Shown here piece by piece: positions 2,773-59,298 of a stretch of DNA of 64,000 nucleotides (position 1 is its first letter; every line of letters starts with the position of its first letter). The translations under genes were made by a program, and so were the position numbers. This stretch comes from Vermamoeba vermiformis (Eukaryota), in contig JBEWZL010000300.1 of assembly GCA_045837725.1 (NCBI GenBank), positions 372,001 to 436,000 of the forward strand. Reading direction: 5' to 3'. The notes under the pieces are model-generated. The model ran no database searches. It saw only the letters and a list, made by a program, of their open reading frames with translations, and had not been told where the DNA came from.

Positions 2773-3739
2773 TTATTTCTTAGCGTCCTTCAAACGATCG
2801 GCAACGTTGTTCCAGTTGACAACATTCCAAATAGCCTTCAAGTAGTCAGGTCTGACGTTCTTGTATTGCAAGTAGTAGGCGTGCTAACATATCATTAGTA
2901 CCTCACGTACGAGCGCACAACTGTCGCACTTACCTCCCACACGTCGAAGCCCAAGAGGGGCACCAAGTTGTGAGTGGCCAACAAAGGATCTTGGTTGGGG
3001 CAAGCAGCGATGGCCAAGCGACCAGTGTCCTTGCTGTAGCCTAACCAGCCCCAGCCCGAGCCTTGGACAGCAACGCAGGCATTGGTCATGCGCTCAACGA
3101 GCTTCTCGTACGAGCCAAAGTCCTTTTCAATGGCTGTCAACAATTCACCAGTAGGTTTGCCGCCACCACCATTCTTCGGTGAAGCCAAGTTAGTCCAGAA
3201 AATTGAGTGGTTAACATGACCTCCACCTGTGAATTTAATAGTTAGATATGCAAGGGAAACTCGGAGATATTGAGCCAGAAAAATTCCGAAAGCAGATGCG
3301 CAAAGAAAAGAATCGTGATATTTACCATTGAATTTAATGGCACTTTGGAGGGCAATCATTTGTTGCACGTCGCGTTTTCTCTCGGCATCGGCGTATTTTT
3401 CAAGGGCAACATTCAGGTTGGTGACATAAGCCTTGTGGTGTTTCTCGTGGTGAATCTTCATAATTTCACCGCTAATAAAAGGCTCGAGGGCACCGTAGTC
3501 ATAAGGCATATCGGGGAGAGTGTAAGTCTAATTATCAAAATTAAATAAAATAATTTACAAAAATAGAAAATTTTTCAATATTATCTGGTGCTGGTCAATA
3601 CCTGAGGAGGGGCAGTAGAAAATTTAGCAGTCAAAGGGTCTTCATAAAGGCTAAGACCCAAGGCGCTGTTTGTGGTAGCCTTGGTGGACTTGGTTGCGCG
3701 CTTGGCGACGGCACGTGCGGCTTTAGCAAGGTGCGACAT
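2773..3739 (-). CDS. SOD2: Manganese superoxide dismutase with mitochondrial presequence, 4 exons
   Basis: [57 protein letters not shown]; basic Ala/Lys/Arg-rich N-terminus. Confidence 0.96.
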
Positions 3740-4049: not shown

Positions 4050-7000
4050 TTATTTGTTAGCAGCAGTTTCGCGGACGACGTAGTTGAGAACACCACCGTG
4101 CTGTTATTGAACAATTAGTATTATGAACACTTTGTATTAATATCTCTATCACTTACGTTGTAGTAGATGACTTCGGATTCAGTGTCAATGCGCAACAAGG
4201 CTTCGAATTCACTAATCTTGCCACCAGTGACCTTAACCTTGACCATAGAGTTGGGCTTGATCTTGTCAGCTGGGCCCAAGTCGAAGGAGAATTTTTCTTT
4301 GCCAGTCAAGCCAAGAGAGTCGGCGCTTTGACCTTCCTTGAACTCAAGAGGGATGATGCCGAAGAGCACCAAGTTGGAGCGGTGAATACGCTCGAAGGAT
4401 TGAGCAATGACAGCCTTAACGTTGAGCAAAGCAGTACCCTTAGCAGCCCAGTCACGAGATGAGCCAGAGCCGTATTGTTCACCAGCCAAGATCACGAGAG
4501 GAGTGTTGTTTTGGATGTACTTGTCAGCAGCATCGAAGACAGACATAGTTTCACCAGTGGGGTGGTAGATAGTAACGGGACCAGGCTTGCCAATAAGCTT
4601 GTTCATCAAGCGAATGTTGGCGAAGGTACCACGAGCCATAACCTCGAAGTTACCACGGCGAGAACCGTAGCTGTTGAAGTCCTTGCGAGTGACACCGCGG
4701 TCAGTCAAGTACTTGGCAGCAGCTGAGTCCTTGGCGATGTTACCAGCAGGGGAGATGTGATCGGTAGTGACGGAGTCACCAAGATTCAACAAGCAAGGAG
4801 CGTTCTCGAGCTTGGTGAAGGCGACAGGGTTGGGCTTCATACCCTCGAAGAAAGGAGGACGCTTGATGTAAGTGGAGGATTTGTCCCAAGGATAGAGTTG
4901 CTCGCTGGAGGCCTTGAGAGCGTTCCATTGAGGAGTACCGTTGGTGACACTGGAGTAAACAGTGGTGAAGAACTCCTTGAGGACAGACTTGTTGACGACC
5001 TCAGCAATCTCGTCGTTAGAGGGCCAGATGTCCTTCAAGTAGACGTCCTTGCCGTCCTTGCCCTTGCCAATAGGCTCGGTCTCGAAGTCAATATCGACCT
5101 TGCCAGCCAAAGCGTAAGCAACGACCAAAGGAGGGCTAGCCAAGTAGTTAGCCTTGATGTTGGGGTGAATACGGCCTTCGAAATTTCTGTTGCCGGACAA
5201 GACACCGCTGACAACGAGGTCGTTCTTCTCGATGGCATTGACGATGGGGTCAGGGAGAGGACCAGAGTTACCAATGCAGGTAGTGCAACCGTAACCAACA
5301 ATGTTGAAGCCAATCTTTTCCATGTAAGGCAACAAACCACTCTTCTCGAGGTAGTTGGTGACAGTGACGGAACCAGGAGCGCAAGAGGTCTTGACGAAAG
5401 GAGCAACATTCAAACCCTTCTCGACGGCCTTCTTGGCAACCAAACCAGCACCGATCATGACGCTAGGGTTGCTAGTGTTAGTGCAAGAAGTGATGGCAGC
5501 CAAAACGACAGAGCCGTGGTGAAGTTTGAACTTTTGACCCTTGTATTCGGCTTCGACAGTCTTTTGACGTTGTTCAGCAGGGAGACCAAAGCCCTTGAAG
5601 TTGTTTTGAGGGTTGTTCAAAGCAGTGAGGAAATCAGTCTTCATCTTGCTAAGAGGAACGTAGTCGTGAGGTCTCTTGGGACCAGCCATAGCGGGAACAA
5701 GAGAGCTCAAATCAAGTTCAACGACGTCAGTGAACTTGGGATCAGCAGCGGCGTCTTGGTAGTTTCTGAAGAGACCTTGGGCCTTGAGGTAAGCTTCGGT
5801 CCAAGAGATGTGTTCAGCCTTGCGGCCAGTCATGCGCATGTAGTTGAGAGTTTGCTCGTCAACAGGGAAGTAGCAGATGGTGGCACCCATTTCAGGAGAC
5901 ATGTTAGAGATAGTGGCACGATCGGTAATGGACAAGCTGGAGATACCAGGGCCGTAGAATTCAACGAACTTGTCGACGACACCCTTCTTACGCAAAACGT
6001 TGGTGATAGCCAACACAAGATCGGTGGAAGTGACGTGAGAAGGAAGCTTGCCGGTCAACTTGAAACCAATGACCTCAGGGAGGACCATGGAAATGGGTTG
6101 ATCCATCATAACAGCTTCGGCTTCAATACCACCAACACCCCAGCCGACACTAATTCAACAGTGTTAATAAATTTGAATACAATATGAACCTAAGCACCGT
6201 GCACTTACACTCCTAAACCGTTGACCATCGGAGTGTGAGAGTCAGTACCGACGACTGAGTCGGGGTACAAGAGGCCGTCCTTGTTGAAGACAACGCGAGC
6301 CAAGTATTCCAAGTTGACTTGGTGAACAATACCAGCGCCAGGAGGAACAATGGTAAGGTTCTTGAATGCGTTGGCACCCCACTTCAAGAAGCGGAAACGT
6401 TCTTCGTTACGTTCCATTTCGAGATCGAGGTTCTTTTGAAGAGCATCCTTGGTGCCATATTCATCGACTTGGACACTGTGGTCGATAACCAAATCGACGG
6501 GGACACGAGGGTTGATCTTAGCGGGATCACCGCCCAAGTCCTTGAGAGAGTCTCTCATGGCAGCGAGATCGACAACGGCGGGGACACCAGTGAAGTCCTG
6601 GAAAAAGGTTAAATATTGGCTAATTAGCGTAGAGAGGCTGATAACGTACTTGCAAAATGACACGAGCAGGCTTGAATTGAATCTCGGTTTGGTTGGTGTG
6701 GGTTTTAGCTGATCGGAAAACACGTGAGATCAAATGTTACACAAAATCACAATTTATGAGAGGTGGTCTTATATTCGCTATTAATTCATTACAGCGGATT
6801 TCATAAAACGTGCTCACTTAAATTAAATTTATTACTTTTTGCAATATCTTTCGTAAACGAATGAATTAGTTTCCCGCGACAACGCGCATCGAGAGGTATC
6901 TGTGGCGCCTCCTTACCCAGGATAGGTGCCACGATAAGAAACGAGCACGAAAGATTAAAAGCGGGGCACAGTTAATTCACCGCTAATTTAATAAATTTAG

Positions 7001-21030: not shown

Positions 21031-24000
21031 TTATTTGTGTCTGTTGGTACGAGTCAACATCTGCACACCATCAGAAATGATCTTCCAGTTAATGTTCAAG
21101 TTGTTGTTCGGAGCACGCAAAGGAGGCTCAATGAAGCCGCACTGGATCAAGTACGAGAAGTAGGTCAACAAGACGTTGTCAATCTCCGGGAAGACAGCGT
21201 TCTTGCGAGCCTCGTGCAAGTTTCTGTTGTCAGTCTTGGGTCTGTTTTGCAAGCCATCAGCCCAGCTCTCAGTGAAGAACGTGACCATCGAGCTCAATGC
21301 ATTGTCGTTCTCAGCGGCAGCAGTGGCTTGGACCAGCTTCTGTCTCCAAGCAGCGTAATCGATCAACTCGACGTTGTAGCCGAATGCGTGCATTGAAGTG
21401 AAGAGCTTGTTGAACGAGTAGAGGTTGCTGTTGACCACGTTGAAGGACTTGTTGAGGGCTGAAGCATCAAACGCGCAGTTGGTGATGGACTCGGTTACGA
21501 AATCCACGGGGCTCATGTCCAAAGTGGCAGCGCGCAAGTCAGGAGCAGCACCCAATTGAATGCAGCCCTTGATCAAGCGGCAAATGAAGTCGTCAGTGTT
21601 CCAGATGCCATTGACAGTGTCACCAGAGACGTAGCCAGGACGGTAAATCGACACTGGAATGCCGCGGGCACGAGCAGCCAAGACGAGTTTCTCAGCGACC
21701 CACTTGGTTTGCGGGTAGCCACCGCTGAGACCAAGAGGGTTCGTAGTGAAAGGATCATCTTCGTACACAGTCTTCAAGTTCTGGTGATAGTCGCTCTCGT
21801 AGACACTCGTGGTGGACACGTAGTGCACGGGCTTCAAGCGAGTCTTAGAGGCCAATTTCAATACAGCAAGTGTGCCCAAGACGTTGGTGGCCTTGAGTCT
21901 GTCGTAAGGCTGCAGCCAATGGACATAAGCACCGTTGTGCACGATCAAATCAATCTTCGAAGCAAGATCAGCGAACACAGCGGGAGTGAGGCCCAACAAT
22001 TCCTTGGCCAAGTCTCCAGGCAAAGCGACGATGTGAGGCTCGTACCAATCCTCCCAGAGCAAGTGGCCTTGGAGATTGTTCTTCAAGCGGACCATGGCCT
22101 CTTCTTCGTTGACAGCGCGGACGAGGCAGTACACCTTGAACGCAGAGTCCTTGGTGTCCTTGACACGTGCCAAAAGATCGCGCAACAAAAAGGCACCCAA
22201 GAAGCCAGTGCCACCAGTCAACAAGATGTTGTTGAAAGTAGTGTTGATCGGTGCAATGTTGCTGGGAAGAGTGAGCTCGGGGTCCTTCAACAAAGTAGCA
22301 ACTTCACTTTCCAAGAATTGAGCTTGAGTCTCACGCTCTTTCTTTTGCAAATCTTCGTCTTCAATAGGCTTGCCTTGCTTGACACGTTCAATAGCACGAG
22401 CCATGCTGGTGACAGTAGGAGCCCTAAAAATGTCACAAGTTAATCATTGCTTCAAGCAATTTTTGATTGTACTTACTTGAAGAGCAATTGCATGGGCAAT
22501 TCAGTTTGGAATTCATTGCGGATCTCGAAAGTCAAGCGAGTAGCGAGCAAAGAGTGGCCACCCAACTCGAAGAAACTTTCATCGGGGTTAGTGACTTCCA
22601 CGCCCAAGACCTTGGACCACAATTGGATCAGAGACTGTTCTTGCTCGGTCAACGGTCTCAATGACTTGTTGCCAGTGCCGTCGTTGAGGTCGCTGTTGCC
22701 CTTTTGGGGAGCAGGCAGGCCAGGACGATTGATCTTGCCGTTAGGTGTCAAAGGCATAGTTTGCAGCACTACAATGTGCACGGGGACCATGTAATGTGGC
22801 AATTTGCCGGCCAAGAACTGCTTGAGCTCCTTGCACAATGAAGGAATGTCAATCGAGCTGACCTTGTTGCCGTCTCTGTCGAATTCAGTGGGCACAATGT
22901 ACGAGACCAGTTGTTTGTCGCCAGGCTTGTCTTCACGCACAATAGTGACGTTTTCTTTGACAGTCGGGTGCTTGCTGAGCACGGCGTTGATTTCACCGAG
23001 TTCAATTCTGAAGCCACGGATCTTAACTTGATCGTCAGCACGACCCATGCACTCAAGGGAACCGTCAGAAGCGTAACGACCCAAGTCACCAGTGCGGTAC
23101 ATGCGATCGCCAGGGATGTTGGTGAAAGGATTTTGCAAGAACTTGGCCTTAGTTTGTTCCTCCAAGGCAATGTAGCCGCGAGCCAAATGGTGGCTGCGCA
23201 CGTAGATTTCAGCGGCTTCACCGACACCAGCCAATTTGCCGCGAGAGTTGAGGATCAGCAAATCAACGTCCTGCATACCAACACCAACAGGAATGACTTC
23301 CTTCATGTCCTTCAAGAGCTCGTCGCCAGGCACAACAAAGTAACCGACAGAGCGCTGAGTTTCAGTTGAGCCGTACATGTTGATGCAGCGGACATTCGGG
23401 CACAAGCGGCGCAAACGATACACGTCACGCTTGATCAAAAGATCTCCGACGAAGAAAGCGTTCTTCAAGCTGTCAATGGTGAACGAAGGGTTGTCCACAG
23501 TCGTCAAGAGTTGACCGAGAGCAGGAGTCATGCACGTCACATTGATCTCGTTCTCTTTCATCCACTCAGCAAGACGACCAGGTTCGTTGATAGTTTCTTG
23601 CGAGGGAATGTAAACAGGAGCGCCAAAGAAGAGCGGAGTAAAAATATCACGTTGAAGAGGATCGTGAGCAATACCAGAGCACATTGAGAAGCGATCATCA
23701 GGACCAAACTCGAAGCGTTGTGACATCCAAGGATAGAAGTGCGTCAATGACACGTGACGACCCATGACACCCTTGGGGATACCAGTCGAACCAGAAGTGA
23801 ATGTTACGACAGCCAGTGAGTCAGGACCAACTTCGACGTTGGGGTAAGTCTCAGGAGATTGAGCGAGAGGATTGGCGGCGTCATTGGCCAGCTCGTCAAC
23901 AGCAGGGAGGGAGAGCTGAAGGAGCAAGTTCAACGAGGTCAAGTACTCTAGCAAATCAGCGGGCAAAGATCCAGCAGCACCAATACCAACCCAACCACGA

Positions 24001-27000
24001 GGTTTAGCAATGTCAAGGCATTGTTGAATGCGTTCAGTGGGGTAGATCGGGTCCATCATGGTATAAGCGGCACCAGCCTTGAGGATACCCATAATAGCAA
24101 CGACTACTGGAGGGCTTCTGTGGCCGTAGATGGCAATCACATCCTCAGGCTTGATACCACAGCTGATCAAATAGTTGGAGAGCTTGTTGGTCCATTTCTC
24201 CAACACACCGTAAGTAATCGGCTTGTTTTGGTAAACAACAGCGACACGATCAGGATTGGCACGAGCATTGCGTGAGAAGTGATCGTAGATAGCTCCACGC
24301 CAAGTGCCGTCGATGGGCTTCTCAGGCACAGGCAACACACCCTTGGCACGTTCAGTAACGAGAGTGTAGTTGACAATGTTCTCGGAGGGATTGGCAAGAA
24401 TTTGAGTGAGCAACAACTCGAGTTGAGAGTGCAACTCTTCCATTCTCACAGCGAAGAACAACTTCTTGTTGTAGAGCAATTCAATCTTGATCGGTTCGTC
24501 ATCGCGTTCACCACCGCTGATAGTCACGGTCAGATCCAAAGGAGACTTCTCTTCTTGCAAAGTCACCGCTTCGACGTTCACAGCTTGAGAAGCAAACTCG
24601 CCGTTGAATCTCTCGGGCAAGGGGGTCTTTTCGAGTTCAGTAGCCAAGTTAATTTGCACTTGAGAGATAGGGGCGTGCGCAATACGAGGACCGCCTTCTT
24701 CTTTGCCATAGAGCTCCTCCAAGACTCGTTCAAAGGGAACATCACGGTGAGCAAGAGCTTGTTCGAAAGTTTGTTGGACTTGTTCGAGCAATTGTTGGAA
24801 GCTGAGGTTATCAGCGACCGGAGTGCGCAACACCAATTGATTGGCAAAAGTGCCCAAGAGTTGTCTGTACATGGCCATAGTGCGGCCGGAGAACTTGGTG
24901 GTGACGATGATGTCTTCTTCGAGTGTAAAGCGGTACAAGATGATCTTGAAGGCAGTCAAAAGGGAGATGAACAAGCCGTTCCAGTTGTTGCTGTCAGAAC
25001 TGATGCGTTCGCTGAACTTGCGAAGCTTTTGAGTCAACTCGAGCGGCAATTGACGCACGGACTTGACACAGTCGAATCCTTGAACAGGAGGACGAGGATA
25101 ATCGATGGGCAATTGCAACACGTGCAAGCTGCCGTTCAACTTCTCCTTCCAGTAGTGGATTTGAGCTTGTTCCCAAGTCTCTTCGTCAGTCGGTGACATT
25201 TCATCGCCAGCCCAAGAGTGAGTCAACCAGCGAGAGTAGTCCCAGTGCGAGTAATCGCCGTATTGAAGGGCGTGATGGCCAGCACCAGCAGCGGTCTTGC
25301 CGAAGAGCTTCTCAACGAACAAAGAGAGCGATTGTTCGTCAGCAATGATTTGGTGCATGACTACCAACACGACAGAGGCGCTGGAAGTCTGGCACAAGAC
25401 AATACGAATGAGCGGCAAGCGTTCAATGTTGAAGGGAGTGGCAATGTGGTGCATGAGCAAGGCTTGGAACTCAGCAGTTTGAGTCTCGTGCGTGCTTTGA
25501 ACTTGACTCACGACCGATGACATGTCTACAGTGGTGTGCACTGTTTGCATCAAACGTTGCTTCTCAGCATTGAACTCGAATGTGGTGCGCAAGATCTCGC
25601 TTTCACTGAGCAACTGAGAGACAACAGCGCTCAATTGAGTCAACGAGACTTGCTTGTCAAGCTTGACGGCCTTGGCAATGTTGTACGCCGAAGTGTCAAC
25701 TTGATGCAACTTCCACAATCGTTCTTGGTGCCAAGTGCAATGAAGCTCAGGATGTTGAGAACGCGACAAAGGCACAGGGCTGATAGTAGCAATTTTTTCG
25801 AGGAAAAGTCCTTCGACGCGAGTCCACACATCATTACGGGGTTGACCTAACAAGACAAAGTCAAAATGTATTCAATAATATTGCAAAGTAGTACTACTCA
25901 CCGATAGTCAACAAATGGGGCAATAATTGTTTGCTAAAATCTTTGCTGCTTTCGGTAGGTAACAAGCTAGGCAAAGTGGGAATAGCAATCAGATCCAAAG
26001 GTCTTGGTTTGTCCAAAACTCTCAACGTGGGCTTATCGAAGGTCGTAGGTTGATGATAAATAGGCAACGGGTTCTTAGGGTTTTGGTAATCGCAACTAAC
26101 GTCGACAACGACGCTCAATTGACGACCAGCACTGCGGATCAATTCTTCGGTTAAGAAAGGCGAACGGACTTGTTGATCCAGCTTGATGGCGTTCAAAAGA
26201 ATATCAAACTGCAAGAGTTCAGCGTAAGGTCCCTCGACAGCAGTTTGTTCTCTGGTCCATTTAGTCACAGGCAAGCCCAATTGTTCGGCCAAAGAGATAG
26301 CGCCTCGACCGACGATACCCTAGCACCTCGTTAATAAGAGCAATATGAATATGAATGTAATATAGGCATACATTAGCACCAATGATAACGATATTGGGAG
26401 TGCGGCGAGAGAAGGTAACAGCGGTATTGAGCAAGGCTTTCAAGTGCTCGAGGAGAGGCAAGTTCTCGAATTGACGAATCATATCCGAAGGGATTTGAAT
26501 GCTTTTCTCCATCAATTCTTGTCTAAAATAATTATTAGAGCCTGATTCAATTATAGCGAATTTCAGGATCCCGTACCTGCACCAAGCCAAAACTCCTGCA
26601 GCCATGCCAGTGTAACCGGCGATGTTACCGAATGAAGCAAGACGATGTCCTTGCTCATTGACAATGTATTCAATGTCCAACAGAGCACCGCCACCTGATG
26701 ATTCAACGGATTAGCAATGTGAGTCAAAATAAACAAATGGACACGAAATTGGGACCGGTATTAAAATGCGGGTATTGGGTGTCACAATATTAATTAACGA
26801 TATTTTAATGAGCTAAATGCTATTTCCGATTTTTAGAATTTTTTGGCGGTTTTTTTTTACCTTGCAAGAAGCGAGTCAGCAGATCTCGCCAGCCAAATTG
26901 GTTCTTGAATGCGTGGCCAAAGTAGATATGACGGTGATTCAAGGGGAAGGTGCCAGCAAGAGGTCCCAGGCCCTAACACAGCTGTCAGTTGCTGGATCGA

Positions 27001-27415
27001 CACCACGGAACGGTCTCAAAGTTGTCTGGTGGACTTATATTGCTATAAGTAATTCAAAAAATGATTGCATACCAAAATAACAGTCTCAAGAGGGGCTTCA
27101 TTCATCCAGGTGTTTGGTTCAGCCAAAGTGCAGCTGCAAAACGCGAGTTAGATGAGCTTGGAAACAACAAGATCCCACATTTAAATTTAAAACTTACCCG
27201 ACTTTTTGGTATTGATCATCGCTAAAGGTTCGTTGACCAGACTTTTCAACGGTAACTAAGTTAAACTAGATCAGATCCGGGCTGGCAGTTATCAAAGCGG
27301 CTGATTGCTTACCCTTAACACCTTGTTGAACGAGCTTTTCAGCGTCCTCAGGAGTCAGCGGCGTTCTCCTCTCGTTGGGATTCGTTTCAGCGCGTAACCA
27401 GAAGTGGGTTGTCAT
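21031..27415 (-). CDS. Fusion protein: saccharopine-dehydrogenase (Lys1)-like domain + condensation + adenylation + thiolation + reductase (Lys2-type L-2-aminoadipate reductase), roughly 1950 aa
   Basis: N-term WLRAETNPNERRTPLTP, HIYFGHAFKNQ.GW, DIEYIV.E.GHRLASFG, DVSCD, LPSLLP.ESS.DFS. Spliced in frame through intron 25847-25901 into VWTRVEGLF and on to the C domain. A domain FTSGSTGIPKGVMGRH, SGIAHDPLQRDIFTPLF, NMYGSTETQR; T FFELGGHSLLA; R LLTGGTGFLG, GYPQTKWVAE. Confidence 0.9.
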
Positions 27416-27668: not shown

Positions 27669-28187
27669 TTAATCCAAGTTATTATTATTTACAGAATTGA
27701 AATTTTGTTCGCGTTGCAGAATGGTTCTAATCGTGTCATTACGCACTATTTTCGTCTCAAATACTTCACGAGCCATAGCCCCGCACTCGTATTCAGGCAC
27801 TACCCTGGTTATGTACAGTGTCACGTTAGCAATAAAATCCAACGTGGCATTGAAGTGTTGCCGCAGTTGGGCCAGTTTGAGCGCCGCAGGAGCCAGCTCG
27901 CACGGCTGTGCATGTTGAAATTCCTGAATAAAATCTGCCGCAACTTGATCAAAGTGTTCTTCTAGGACTAGTTTAAGGGCTTCGTTGAGTTGCCGGCTAT
28001 GGTTGTGGAGAGCTATGTTATAGCAGTGTCGGAAGTGTTCTTCGTACGAGCAATGCAATGTTTCGTCGTAGCTCTGCGTCAAGCTTGCTTTTACAGCGCT
28101 GATGACCACGGCTATAGCCTCCTCTGCATTAAAAGTCGAAGGTCTGTAAGGTTTCGTACTAATACTTATTCTTTGTTGCTGTTGCAT
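27669..28187 (-). CDS. Stand-alone cullin N-terminal repeat-like protein (172 aa, intronless)
   Basis: CSYEEHFRHCYNIALHNHSRQLNEALKLVLEEHF resembles cullin-3 [25 protein letters not shown]..HL; stop after first repeat. Confidence 0.7.
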   Translation of the reverse strand: MQQQQRISISTKPYRPSTFNAEEAIAVVISAVKASLTQSYDETLHCSYEEHFRHCYNIALHNHSRQLNEALKLVLEEHFDQVAADFIQEFQHAQPCELAPAALKLAQLRQHFNATLDFIANVTLYITRVVPEYECGAMAREVFETKIVRNDTIRTILQREQNFNSVNNNNLD

Positions 28188-28490
28188 GTTGTTCTGTGAT
28201 AGAAGGGTGTTAGACAAAAGATCTCGAGATGTAACTTGCTATCGGTCCACTAAAAAAATAGGAAATGTCAAGCTCTGGTTTTTTTGAGACTTCTGCGGAA
28301 AAACTTAGAATAAGTAATCTAGATTAACATTCAAACTACTGCATGTATTGTCCAATTGCTCTTTTCTGTCGGGTTGTTTAATTAACCGGTTTACCGCCAG
28401 TGTTCCAATTAATTTAAATTATTATCCAGAGTTTGTGCTATAAATTACCGATAATTTGTTGCGCTATGTTCTCCTCTATTAATATTAATT

Positions 28491-28750
28491 TTAATATTTC
28501 GTTTTAATTATTTCATTCTTTAAAATTTTCTCGTTGAATACCAGTTGCGCCATTACGGCACAATCATGCTCGGGGACAATTTTACTAAAATGGATGGTAA
28601 TGGTTGCAATCATATCCACGGATGCAGTAAATTGTTGCTCTATCCTCAAGACTGCTGCGCCGCTGTAACTTCGCACGATTGCGCAATAGTGTCGGTAATT
28701 ATAACATTCTCTAATTTTTCGCAGTGCTCTTCTACAACAAAAAGCCGCGA
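28491..28750 (-). pseudogene. Frameshifted partial paralog of the cullin-NTD gene
   Basis: One frame gives FVVEEHCEKL...AQSCEVTAA (cf. LVLEEHFDQV...AQPCELAPAA). A second frame gives QQFTASVDMIATITIHFSKIVPEHDCAVMA.LVF (cf. QHFNATLDFIANVTLYITRVVPEYECGAMA.EVF). Shift near 28660. Confidence 0.7.
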
Positions 28751-29001
28751 CTACAATTTTTAACGCCCAACAGCCACACGTGTCCTCAAAGCGACCATGC
28801 ACTTGCATTTTGGCGAGACTCTGAAAAAATAAGTGGTGTCAATGCACTACTTCAGCTCTCGTGCAGTCCACTCCTTGTTTTCTTGTCGTCACCTCCGCCG
28901 AAATTTCAAGCTCTGAAAACCTTCGTGCACAATTTCGCCATTAACACAAAGAAAGCAATAGCGGTTGCAACAATTAATATGTGCTCGTATCAATTTATAC
29001 T

Positions 29002-37959: not shown

Positions 37960-38440
37960 CGTTGTGGGTGGATTTGTACCGGATTCGCTGAGTAGAGTTC
38001 TTTTGTATTGTACAGCTTTGTCAGTAATTGAATGACGAATGTGAATCTAAATTGCTTATATATCCTCGTTTCGTAGGTTTCAATTTTGCGATTTTTAATT
38101 TTCGTACCCTACTTTTTTTGGTTATGAATAAAAACGAAAATTGGAAAAATTACTGTACCTACTGCATGGGATATACCGGATAATTACCTCTACTTTGATA
38201 CATATTCAAATGCTGCGACTGTTCAATGGTGTGCAAACATGAAAAACCGTACCATGGGATCTGCTAGCAGCGTCAGTGCCGCGCGGAACCCCGTACTACT
38301 CTGTAACGTCTGTAGTTCGAACGACTGTAAAAAATAAATTTATCAGTACTATTTTAATGCTGCGGAGTCCTAGTGTTCGCTGAAAATGACTGGCTGTCAA
38401 TTTGTCGTTTTTTTCCCAACAAAGCAACACCAGTCATAGA

Positions 38441-39013
38441 ATGGAACAACGCGCATTCTTGAAAATAGTACCACTGGGCAGTGGTGGTGTTGGCAAGACA
38501 TCTATATGCATTAGATTACGCGATGATGTGTTTTCTGCGGACTACGATCCAACAATCGAAGAAAATTACAGAAAGCAGTTTGTTATTGACGATGAGACTG
38601 TAGTTCCAGAATTTTTCGATGTAGTAGGACAAGAAGAATTTGTTACCATATTAAATGAGTGGATTAGAGAAGCAGATGGAATATTTTTGATTTATTCAAT
38701 TACTTCACTCGCTAGCTTTGCAGAAATTCAGGAAAAATATTACAATATGATATTGAGGGTCAAAGAAGATGCAAAAGTGCCTATAGTGCTCATTGGAAAT
38801 AAATGCGATCTCGAAAATCAAAGAGGCGTTACACGAGAAATGGGCGAAGAATTAGCGAAGAAATATGGCATACCATTTTTTGAAACGAGCGCTAAGACCA
38901 GCATCAATGTTTTTGAGAGTTTGACAGCGCTAGTCAGAGGGATTCGTAGGATCAAATACCCGTCACCTTCAAATCAGAATAAGAAGAAGAAGAGCGAATG
39001 TAAATTATCTTAA
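38441..39013 (+). CDS. Ras-family small GTPase (intronless)
   Basis: GSGGVGKT, YDPTIEENY, DVVGQEEF, NKCD, ETSAK, polybasic tail and CaaX CKLS. Confidence 0.92.
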   Translation: MEQRAFLKIVPLGSGGVGKTSICIRLRDDVFSADYDPTIEENYRKQFVIDDETVVPEFFDVVGQEEFVTILNEWIREADGIFLIYSITSLASFAEIQEKYYNMILRVKEDAKVPIVLIGNKCDLENQRGVTREMGEELAKKYGIPFFETSAKTSINVFESLTALVRGIRRIKYPSPSNQNKKKKSECKLS

Positions 39014-39523
39014 TGCAGGTAAGCTTAATTGTAAATTATTTCTGTTCGAACAGCAATTTCTCAACCGATCAAAGAGCAGCTCAAGGACAGGTAGACAACG
39101 GATTTTAGCAAAGAATTCACAAGAGACATTCTTCATGCCCTCTAGGTCCACCAAATTAACCTCGTCAGTATGGCGCGGACTAGTACAATAGTCACTATTG
39201 AAAATTGGTCTTGATTGATTGGTTCTACAAACTGAACAGTAGACGAGAAAATAGTCTAAAACGAAGAATATTAGCTGTAAGTTATAAAGAGTTGAAATAT
39301 TACTTCGTGTAACGTGCTGCTGAAATTCTTTATTTGGATCAATCTGAGCCTTTCGCCAAATTAAGCAAGTAGGTACGAGGACTATAGTTATATCGACAAG
39401 TCGAGCTGATTTGCTGTTAAAGAGTACCACTCACTCGTAATCTCGCGTTAATCTGGGCTAAGAAGCGTCGTGCACAAATTTTAACTAATTTTTATTGTTT
39501 GTCCGTCCATTCATACTAGTCAT

Positions 39524-40091
39524 ATGGCAGATAATAAGATACACTTAAGGTTTGTATTGCTCGGTGGTGCGCCGAAAACAGGGCGACTGACTCTTGTACT
39601 TCGTTACATCCACCACCGTTACGTTAAGAATTACGAACCAACGATAGACGACGTTTATAAAAAGACATATACACTAGGCGATAAACAATACAGTCTTGAG
39701 ATGATATTACCGCATGATCACGAGCAGTATCATGCACTACGCGAAATGCAGATTAGAAGTGGCGACGGATTTTTGTTAGTCTATTCAGTGGACTCCAAAG
39801 AAAGTTTTTCTAATATTCCATTATTATACGAAGAGATTTATCGATACAGAGAGGATAAAGTCCCGATTGTAATTGTTGGAGCTAAATCCGATAAGTTTCG
39901 CTGCGACAGAGTTTCTGAAGAACAAGGCCAAGAAGTGGCGCAGATTAAATGTTCGACACATAGAAGCGAGCTCCAAACACGATGTTAATGTGGCTGAATG
40001 CTTTGTGGCGTTAATAATGGAATTTGAACGGATGGAGGCTCTGAAGCAAGCAAATACGAAGAAAACTAAAGGCAGGTGTATTATATGTTGA
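39524..40091 (+). pseudogene. Degenerate Ras-like paralog with one frameshift near 39940 (pseudogene or sequence error)
   Basis: YEPTIDDVY, GDGFLLVYSV, then second frame HIEASSK..VNVAECF...KKTKGRCIIC; G1, G3 and G4 degenerate. Confidence 0.75.
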
Positions 40092-58180: not shown

Positions 58181-59298
58181 CCAGGATCGAAACCTGGCTT
58201 CGCTAATCTTTTTTTGCTTCTTTACCCCTTTGTTTTGCTTACTCGCACTAATCCGACAACTTTTTAGGAACTATGTCCTTGACCACTAGCAAGACCATCT
58301 ACCGTGCTGGTTTTGGCCCATTAATGTCTGGCGTTCACACCACTCCTTTCCCTCACTGCTCCGCGTGCAAGATCAAGTCTGCGATGAACAAGCAAGCCGA
58401 CAAAGAGTTCTGCTGCGGCAAGTACGAAGAAGAGATCGAGAACTTACTCAAGATGCAAACCGCTCCTTCCGAAACTGCTGCTATTCTCGTGGAACCTGTT
58501 CAAGGTGAAGGTGGTTATGTCCCTGCTCCTAAAGGTACGAACAACCTGCCGTTCTCGTAGTCTCAAAAACTAACGGCGATTTAGCTTTCATGAAATATTT
58601 GCGCCAAGTCTGTGACAAGCACGGAATTATGTTGATCATCGACGAAGTTCAAACAGGTACTATTACCACCTAATTGTTTGTTGTATCTCACACGACGTGC
58701 TAGGTTTTGGCCGTACTGGTAAATTCTTCGCCATTGAGCACTACGACATTGTGCCCGACATCATGGTCATTGCTAAGGGTCTGGCCTCGGGCTTCCCCTT
58801 GTCTGCTATTGCCAGCACCACTGAGATCATGAAGAGCACACCTCCTGGCTCAATGGGAGGCACTTACGCCGGTAATGCTGTCGCCTGTGCTGCTGCCTCA
58901 GCGACCATCGACGTCATGAAGGACGAGAAGTTGTTGGACAACACCAATGCTCGTGGCAAGGAATTGACTGACGGACTGAAGGAGATTCAAAAGAACCACC
59001 CTGAGTACAACATCGTTGAGGTTCGAGGCTACGGCTTGATGATCGGTGTTGAGTTCGATCACCACAAAGTACCTTACGGCACCGCCAGCAAGTACGTTTG
59101 TTTCAAATCTTCTTAAATGTTACTGACTATTATTCAAGGATCATTCAACACTGCGTTAAGAACGGAATGCTGTTATTGAGCACTGGTGCTTTTGAGACGT
59201 TGCGCTTCATTCCTCCCTTGACCGTTACCAAGGACGAGATCCAAACCGGTTTGAACATCTTTAAGACTGCTTTGAAGGAAGCTTTTGCTAGCAAGTAA
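56840..59298 (+). CDS. Class III PLP aminotransferase, 4-aminobutyrate aminotransferase-like, mitochondrial presequence
   Basis: [79 protein letters not shown]. Confidence 0.92.
57793..57865 (+). tRNA. tRNA-Ala(AGC), intronic
   Basis: Full cloverleaf, G3:U70 pair, anticodon AGC, T-loop ATCGAAA, downstream oligo-T. Confidence 0.95.
58134..58205 (+). tRNA. Initiator tRNA-Met(CAT), intronic
   Basis: A1:U72, three G:C pairs in anticodon stem, anticodon CAT, A54/A60 T-loop ATCGAAA, downstream oligo-T. Confidence 0.95.

Follow-up and report, generated by a model that had tools for sequence, protein, structure and literature searches.

What a dehydrogenase domain of lysine metabolism does at the head of an aminoadipate reductase, once a few key catalytic and cofactor residues have been exchanged, is the question raised by a gene of Vermamoeba vermiformis. 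The gene lies on the minus strand of the 64,000-nucleotide stretch of DNA analyzed here (the window; contig JBEWZL010000300.1, positions 372,001–436,000) and extends from window position 27415 to 21031, with 9 exons that encode a 1927-residue protein. From the N-terminus to the C-terminus, the protein contains a domain similar to yeast saccharopine dehydrogenase (Lys1), a full-length but His-less condensation (C) domain, an adenylation (A) domain, a carrier (T) domain and a thioester reductase (R) domain. An earlier note on this DNA had described a loss of catalytic residues and a changed cofactor fingerprint in the Lys1-like domain and had proposed either a pseudoenzyme that exerts feedback control on the reductase or a domain with new NADP(H)-linked chemistry. 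In the best reading of the sequences compared here, the Lys1-like domain is no longer a canonical NAD-dependent, lysine-forming saccharopine dehydrogenase. With a probability of roughly 0.5, it is instead a catalytic, re-tooled oxidoreductase linked to NADP(H).

Residue replacements in the Lys1-like domain

The Lys1-like domain keeps the two-domain AlaDh_PNT fold of yeast Lys1 (EC 1.5.1.7; PDB 2q99, 2qrj/k/l, 3ugk, 3uh1, 3uha), with a sequence identity of ∼38%. Exons 1 and 7 match the Pfam families AlaDh_PNT_N (26.6 bits) and AlaDh_PNT_C (21.2 bits), respectively, at scores that fall just below the cut-off because single exons were scanned. The profile of alignment A1 scores 478–480 bits on yeast Lys1. 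An AlphaFold2 model of residues 1–363 of a close relative (P0335), which is 95% identical to the window domain, has a pLDDT of 93.7 and a pTM of 0.91. In a Foldseek search, this model superimposes on six yeast Lys1 entries with TM-scores of 0.88–0.91, followed by the LKR domain of human AASS (0.70–0.79) and then by alanine dehydrogenases. Look-alikes in the ESM Atlas are found only among ordinary saccharopine dehydrogenase, alanine dehydrogenase and carboxyethyl-ornithine synthase clusters.

For a residue-by-residue comparison, single exons were aligned by HMMER to the PDB chains of yeast Lys1, for which the 3ugk numbering is native. Exon 7 places KWTR on yeast KWDI (T223 on D227 and R224 on I228) and IPTLP on yeast IDHLP (P315 on D319 and T316 on H320), in agreement with the earlier note. 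The register of its third replacement, GLGP for yeast GLKE (K77/E78), is ambiguous, because yeast has two more residues in the loop that follows GL; HMMER sets P78 on yeast P80. Nonetheless, the segment GLGPLAGTF contains neither lysine nor glutamate in any register, and the loss of K77 and E78 is borne out. The residues that had been listed as kept are also present, with R17 on R18 (exon 1), H94 on H96 and K97 on K99 (exon 4), and E120 on E122 and R129 on R131 (exon 5, alignment coordinates from the table of matches). The glycine loop and the DVSxD and NPxPIY motifs are common to both proteins as well. Further replacements, not described before, are N for K13, I for R204, R for I228, A for C249 and K for Y251. 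The window domain differs from yeast Lys1 in the replacement of K77, E78, D227, E230, C249, Y251, D319 and H320 and in its fusion to a reductase of the nonribosomal peptide synthetase (NRPS) type, whereas yeast Lys1 is free-standing. The proposed loss of catalytic and cofactor residues holds for K77, E78 and D319 and for D227, which is replaced by threonine followed by arginine, but the loss of H320 appears to mean little because this residue is not invariant in the family (H in 123 and N in 69 of 205 non-fused sequences). E78 and D319 are taken here to lie on the lysine side of the yeast site, and R18 and R131 presumably hold the carboxylates of oxoglutarate or of the glutamyl part. K77 and H96 are named as the acid-base pair of yeast saccharopine dehydrogenase in the title of a 2012 paper by Kumar et al.

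A search with exon 7 yielded 66 matches among 935 candidates, and a second search with this exon gave 646 matches at E ≤0.001, of which the best 150 were listed. Further fused proteins were recovered by these searches and by one with the A-T region. Among the 467 sequences collected (identified by P numbers), 232 carry a Lys1-like domain, and 29 of these are at least 600 amino acids (aa) long. Fused proteins with a named source come from Phalansterium solitarium (P0005), Rigifila ramosa (P0188), Paulinella micropora (P0247) and Planoprotostelium fungivorum (P0462). Residues were counted in 21 fused or partly fused rows of the alignment, near-duplicates included, and compared with the remaining rows, using the rows that cover a position as the denominator. 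Position 319 is occupied by proline in 20 of 21 fused rows and by aspartate in 191 of 205 other rows. T, G, R or S is found at position 227 in 19 of 20 fused rows (D in 160 of 199 others), and the following position 228 is arginine in 19 of 20 (35 of 203 others). Alanine is present at position 249 in all 20 fused rows (C in 158 of 210 others), and a basic residue, K, R or H, occupies position 251 in 19 of 20 (L, Y or F in 176 of 210 others). The 13 fused rows that cover position 77 contain R in seven, G in five and K in one, compared with K in 131 of 135 others. E78, present in 125 of 135 non-fused relatives, is replaced by P, A, V or D in the fused clade. In view of these counts, the losses of K77, E78, D227 and D319 can hardly be due to chance. 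The sole exception within the fused set is always the Planoprotostelium protein. Proline at position 319 also occurs in five other rows, all of them fragments of ≤233 aa and four of them exon-level pieces of the same gene family; it is absent from every examined free-standing sequence that is 250 aa or longer. In contrast to the replaced positions, R18 (9/9), R131 (16/16), K99 (15/16), E122 (15/16) and H96 (14/16) are kept in the fused rows; the two exceptions at H96 are Y in P0004 and N in the Planoprotostelium protein.

The 14 sequences that share the derived pattern group together as a single clade (SH-aLRT support 98) in a tree built from 61 rows. An earlier tree, which also contained 61 rows after six fragments had been dropped, grouped the five fused rows then known with a support of 100, and the stem of the fused clade, at 0.8 substitutions per site, was its longest inner branch. 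The replacements are real in the window gene but not peculiar to it; they mark a whole clade that comprises at least 14 fused lineages, with Phalansterium, Rigifila and Paulinella among them. The best-named free-standing matches by score are bacterial (Colwellia, ∼51%), but the trees place the fused clade with a weakly supported set that holds eukaryote-type sequences and do not settle its origin.

The Planoprotostelium protein (P0462; 1767 aa, annotated as 'aminoadipate-semialdehyde dehydrogenase') resembles the window protein in that a Lys1-like domain precedes a Lys2-type A-T-R unit. Unlike the window protein, it keeps K77, E78, D227 and D319, has N at positions 96 and 320, and contains only the C-terminal half of the C domain between the Lys1-like domain and A-T-R. 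P0462 falls outside the 14-member derived clade, at a position that the tree does not fix exactly, and may be either a precursor of the derived fusion or the product of a separate fusion event.

The Lys1-like domain of the window protein is 55–68% identical to those of P0005, P0002 and P0003. The corresponding identities are 64–66% for the A domain and ∼50% for the R domain; the C domain, at 26–39%, evolves much faster than the remaining domains. Between the window protein and P0335, 330 of 345 positions match in the Lys1-like domain and 510 of 526 in the A domain. These values point to purifying selection on the Lys1-like domain comparable to that on the A domain. The distribution of the changes was addressed by a column test on 12 fused lineages and 202 other sequences over 299 columns, from which 18 fragments, near-duplicates and the Planoprotostelium protein were left out. 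Of the 58 columns in which the other sequences are at least 80% conserved, the fused lineages retain 52 and show systematic replacement in only six (K77, E78, A134, D227, E230 and D319). G199, G202, G205 and G207 of the glycine loop are invariant in alignment A1, and 12 of the 14 fused rows show the loop. The replacements are few and shared across the clade, and the rest of the scaffold is intact and under constraint, which indicates that the function of the Lys1-like domain has changed rather than been lost.

The cofactor site has been altered in a directed manner. The acidic residue that ends strand β2 (D227) is replaced in the fused rows by T, S, G or R, which is followed by arginine. As a general rule for Rossmann folds, loss of the acidic β2 residue together with a following arginine favors NADP(H). 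The combination of T, G or S with R at positions 227–228 is also found in free-standing sequences that keep K77, E78, H96 and D319 (e.g., P0307, P0283, P0225 and P0244). The pattern is therefore a working cofactor variant and not the sign of a dead site. T or G followed by R occurs with an intact catalytic set in ∼35 of ∼200 non-fused Lys1-like sequences. These proteins are presumably NADP-linked lysine-forming enzymes, in which case the cofactor switch has been repeated in the family. A249 and the cationic residue at position 251 are additions specific to the fused rows. Residue 251 is probably located near the glycine loop, because yeast C249 is the disulfide partner of C205 in that loop, and it probably faces the dinucleotide phosphates as well; a C205S mutant entry is among the structure matches. 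From the loss of D227, the new R228 and the new K/R251, a preference for NADP(H) is inferred.

The aminoadipate reductase core and related fusions

The sequence C-terminal to the Lys1-like domain is assigned as an α-aminoadipate reductase core of the Lys2 type. Exon 8 matches PF00668 over profile positions 8–452 of 456 (193.5 bits) and PF00501 (217.7 bits), as well as PF13193 and PF00550, and exon 9 matches PF07993 (234.3 bits) and TIGR01746 (330.9 bits). The Lys2 equivalog TIGR03443 scores 775.3 bits on exon 8 (from exon 8 residue 232 on) and 328.6 bits on exon 9, giving an exon sum of 1103.9. As whole proteins, P0005, P0003 and P0002 score 1036.1, 1089.3 and 1025.7, respectively, so that the family sits on the curated cut-off of 1030.1. 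The A-T-R order, the carrier serine (GGHS) and the GxxGxxG and YxxxK motifs of the R domain are all seen in the window translation.

A word-based search with the whole of exon 8 was dominated by bacterial NRPS modules, and the A-T region was used as the query instead. This region is 52–55% identical to LYS2-type proteins of Euglenozoa, namely Euglena gracilis, Entosiphon and the diplonemids Namystynia, Rhynchopus, Diplonema japonicum and Lacrimia. The pocket motif SGIAHDPLQRD, which we take to be a mark of aminoadipate-specific A domains, is present in 30 of 120 sequences. Its carriers comprise all 28 Lys2-like sequences with an R domain and two bacterial NRPSs, and the motif is absent from 90 of 92 bacterial NRPSs. 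The E. gracilis protein and a transcript labelled K00143/LYS2 are among the carriers.

The partner of the Lys1-like domain contains the A-T-R unit of aminoadipate reductase, but it is not a plain fungal-type Lys2, as a full-length, His-less C domain precedes that unit. The window protein shares with fungal and Euglenozoan Lys2 (TIGR03443; EC 1.2.1.31/95) an end-to-end ADA-A-T-R equivalog match at or near the cut-off and the SGIAHDPLQRD motif. It differs from both in its extra Lys1-like domain and from the fungal, Euglena and Planoprotostelium forms, in which only the C-terminal half is found, in its full-length condensation-type domain. The Euglena protein accordingly has only this C-terminal half ahead of A-T-R, whereas the diplonemid proteins (1495–1577 aa) are organized as C-A-T-R without a Lys1-like domain. 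Diplonemids retain a full set of genes for amino-acid biosynthesis, as stated in PMC7052976. In the window protein, the C3 motif of the C domain (within residues ∼365–800) reads MHQIIADEQS and lacks the second histidine of HHxxxDG. This histidine is absent in all ten rows that cover C3 (the window protein, P0005, P0192, P0389, P0396, P0356 and four diplonemid sequences). The C domain is predicted to be non-catalytic because of this loss, and it probably supports adenylation in the manner of the N-terminal domain of fungal Lys2, which is believed to be a non-catalytic support domain.

Lys1-type domains are also found in other multifunctional proteins of lysine metabolism. The LKR/LOR protein AASS (PDB 8dda, 8e8t-v) resembles the window protein in this respect, and its LKR domain is the closest fold after Lys1 itself. 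However, the LKR domain of AASS and the Lys1 parts of Lys9/Lys1 fusions (P0204, P0215 and P0198) keep the catalytic K, H and D, unlike the window domain. In these proteins, the Lys1-type domain is joined to a Lys9-type domain (Sacchrp_dh_NADP/Sacchrp_dh_C) and not to an adenylating reductase; a Pfam scan of the exons of the window gene found neither Sacchrp_dh_NADP nor Sacchrp_dh_C. Two arrangements of the Lys9 and Lys1 parts occur in the collected set, both with canonical catalytic residues. P0204, P0215, P0224, P0251 and P0271 are Lys9::Lys1 proteins of 824–957 aa with a C-terminal Lys1 part, and P0198 is a Lys1::Lys9 protein of 750 aa. Pfam confirmation covers P0204, P0215 and P0198 only.

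Function of the Lys1-like domain

The two options of the earlier note, a pseudoenzyme and a domain with NADP(H)-linked chemistry, are both live. The evidence leans to the second without deciding between them, because the domain is conserved like the A domain, replacement is limited to six of the 58 conserved columns, the glycine loop persists and the T/G-R pattern occurs in catalytically intact relatives. As a re-tooled oxidoreductase, the Lys1-like domain would act beside the aminoadipate reductase (AAR) step of the α-aminoadipate lysine pathway and would still bind a dicarboxylate and NADP(H). With the acid-base machinery of Lys77 and Asp319 gone, its substrate would no longer need enzyme-catalyzed carbinolamine chemistry on a ketone. 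The R domain would release aminoadipate semialdehyde, which would cyclize to Δ1-piperideine-6-carboxylate (P6C), and the Lys1-like domain would take up this unstable product. Our guess at the reaction is that an aldehyde-derived imine is reduced with NADPH. This proposal is the most economical one because the partner yields semialdehyde/P6C and fusions usually join neighboring pathway steps.

In the most attractive version of this chemistry, the imine formed between the semialdehyde and glutamate would be reduced to saccharopine, with glutamate bound to the retained R18/R131 pair. Such a reaction would resemble the step of Lys9, which uses NADPH. A full takeover of the Lys9 step, in which a single polypeptide would convert aminoadipate through the semialdehyde to saccharopine in an NADPH-dependent manner and channel the aldehyde, is a speculative extension and, taken by itself, unlikely. 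In a variant, P6C would be reduced to pipecolate. A further possibility is the reductive amination of 2-oxoadipate to aminoadipate, the step that precedes the reductase.

Several observations weigh against a catalytic role. Both yeast Lys1 and human LKR possess K77 and D319, which are also near-invariant in non-fused relatives, and the loss of the two might simply abolish catalysis. Position 77 is unfixed within the clade (G in five rows and R in seven), as is position 78 (P, A, V or D), which looks like relaxation at the old catalytic spot and not like the emergence of a new catalytic residue. The retained set is itself broken in single members, with Y for H96 in P0004, A for E122 in P0192 and T for K99 in the Paulinella protein. 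P0396 and P0348 have D at position 207 and a one-residue gap in the glycine loop. LKR is an NADPH-linked enzyme, and human LKR was considered as a positive control for positions 227–228 but was dropped, as the alignment there is too poor.

Alternatively, the Lys1-like domain may be a non-catalytic pseudoenzyme that is folded, binds a ligand and serves to regulate, stabilize or scaffold the reductase, with feedback and redox sensing as possible modes. Its ligand could be NADPH, a dicarboxylate (such as aminoadipate, 2-oxoglutarate or saccharopine) or lysine. The disappearance of both K77 and D319, the variability of positions 77 and 78 within the clade and the loss of H96 in one member all fit this explanation, and strong conservation is equally expected of a binding domain. 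The adjacent C domain provides a parallel within the same polypeptide, as it appears to be a non-catalytic relic kept for a supporting role, and inhibition by lysine has been reported for fungal aminoadipate reductases. However, the cofactor pocket is remodelled in one direction, with T/G and R at positions 227–228 and K/R at position 251 in 19 of 20 fused rows, the same 227–228 pattern belongs to catalytically intact relatives, and the replacements are confined to six of 58 conserved columns. A pseudoenzyme is on this balance a serious but somewhat unlikely alternative. Its lysine-sensor version is weakened further if E78 and D319, which are lost, are on the lysine side of the yeast site and the kept arginines are the pair for the oxoglutarate carboxylates.

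Another alternative holds that the Lys1-like domain still forms lysine as a saccharopine dehydrogenase that has switched to NADP, with H96 alone, R77 or K/R251 standing in for K77 and D319, and that the fusion joins AAR to the last step of the pathway. The retention of R18, H96, K99, E122 and R131 is compatible with this function, as is the conservative replacement of K77 by arginine in seven of 13 fused rows, three of which also have D for E78. Yeast K77 mutants reportedly keep residual activity. Moreover, the Planoprotostelium fusion keeps K77, E78, D227 and D319, and the ancestral fusion may have been one of an active Lys1 with Lys2. Continued lysine formation is nevertheless improbable, considering that D319 is replaced by proline in 20 of 21 fused rows, a residue found there in no free-standing sequence of at least 250 aa examined, and that K77 is replaced by glycine in the subclade of the window gene itself. 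In addition, arginine is a poor general base, and the two joined steps would not be consecutive.

Gene structure, neighboring genes and wider meaning

The gene model is supported by three 1927-aa proteins (P0335, P0339 and P0342) encoded on contigs of 5945, 5978 and 5925 bases. The genes on these contigs are evidently intronless, because contigs of ∼5.9 kb are too short to hold the introns. The window model matches the three proteins without gaps at 1827, 1826 and 1825 of 1927 residues, respectively (94.8%). All eight exon junctions are colinear with them, including that of intron 3, across which ...VVLGLGPLAG is read. The full-length intronless contigs in a close relative support expression of the fused gene. 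All eight introns of the window gene are of the GT..AG type, with lengths of 52–166 nt, and there is no in-frame stop. The boundaries that the earlier note had given for intron 3 are confirmed by the gene model and the intronless relatives (Table 1).

That note had also pointed to alternative splicing of intron 3 as a way to regain the Lys-Glu pair. Such splicing, or an incorrect model with the same effect, is ruled out by the intronless 1927-aa relatives, which also read GLGP, and by the stop codon that in-frame read-through of a retained intron 3 meets. A pseudogene is ruled out by the open frame, the canonical introns and the strong conservation. Although the K77 position falls exactly at an exon start and automated predictions of relatives are often truncated there (P0002 and P0004), it is hardly conceivable that the replacements stem from an erroneous gene model, a misplaced splice junction or a pseudogene in decay, given the ungapped match to three intronless relatives with every junction colinear, the lack of in-frame stops, the GT..AG introns and the same residue signature in 14 lineages.

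Table 1. Features of the fused gene, given as positions in the window
Feature	Position	Strand	Remarks
Lys1-like (AlaDh_PNT fold) domain, model residues 1–341	27415..25902	-	exons 1–7; Pfam, yeast Lys1 alignment, AlphaFold2 model of a relative
Exons 1–4	27415-27313, 27255-27198, 27133-27073, 26972-26861	-	Lys1-like domain
Exons 5–7	26694-26577, 26522-26372, 26319-25902	-	Lys1-like domain
Intron 3, 100 nt, GTATGC..TGTTAG	26973..27072	-	immediately 5' of the GLGP codons
Codons G75-L76-G77-P78 (GLGP)	26961..26972	-	place of yeast G75-L76-K77-E78; following loop 2 residues shorter
Codons T223-R224	26250..26255	-	place of yeast D227-I228, end of Rossmann strand β2
Codons A245-I246-K247 (NAIKL)	26178..26186	-	place of yeast C249-I250-Y251
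Codons P315-T316 (IPTLP)	25974..25979	-	place of yeast D319-H320
Exon 8: full-length condensation-type domain, adenylation domain, start of carrier	22477..25846	-	PF00668, PF00501, PF13193, PF00550, TIGR03443
Exon 9: end of carrier, thioester reductase (R) domain; stop codon 21031-21033	21031..22423	-	PF07993, TIGR01746, TIGR03443

Two open reading frames (ORFs) just upstream of the fused gene, 27669-28238 (-) and 28491-28838 (-), are alike by eye (…VPEYECGAMAREVFETKIV… and …VPEHDCAVMAQLVFNEKIL…) and may form a small local gene family; the former has no Pfam match. A class-III aminotransferase domain (PF00202, 146.6 bits) is encoded by an ORF fragment at 58616-59116 (+), ∼31 kb from the fused gene, with no link to the lysine pathway shown. 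The gene at 4121-6729 (-) belongs to the aconitase family (PF00330/PF00694), an assignment at the family level that does not distinguish homoaconitase. The window also contains an Fe/Mn superoxide dismutase gene split by an intron (2895-3527, -), a fragment of an M16 peptidase (1002-1700, -) and ORFs with a DDE_Tnp_4 (Harbinger/PIF-type) transposase domain (PF13359; 54395-55566, +). Two adjacent ORFs encode small GTPases of the Ras family, one confirmed by Pfam (38390-39013, +) and the other judged by eye (39485-39988, +).

Neither the Lys1-like/Lys2 fusion nor its active-site variant was described in any paper found by literature searches, whose reach excluded ∼1.7 million PubMed Central manuscripts and most subscription journals. 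Automatic annotations already name such proteins 'L-aminoadipate-semialdehyde dehydrogenase' or 'saccharopine dehydrogenase'. The α-aminoadipate pathway is commonly assigned to fungi, and its reductase is regarded as one of their hallmarks. The sequences collected here place a Lys2-type reductase in several protist supergroups, where it carries two extra domains, one of which is an altered copy of the last enzyme of the pathway.

If the Lys1-like domain is catalytic, it would represent a natural re-aiming of an amino-acid dehydrogenase scaffold at a new imine, and the fusion would supply a step, perhaps with channelling, at the point where a reactive aldehyde arises. If it has taken over the Lys9 step, the Lys1 scaffold would have been re-registered to reduce the other C–N bond of saccharopine, and a variant α-aminoadipate pathway would be common to Amoebozoa, CRuMs and Rhizaria. 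If it is regulatory, it would clearly illustrate how an enzyme from the end of a pathway can be attached to an upstream enzyme as its sensor. In both cases, a domain match alone is no basis for the label 'saccharopine dehydrogenase' or for the assignment of a complete lysine pathway, and residues 77, 78, 227, 228, 249, 251, 319 and 320 constitute a compact set for a mutational study of Lys1/LKR specificity.

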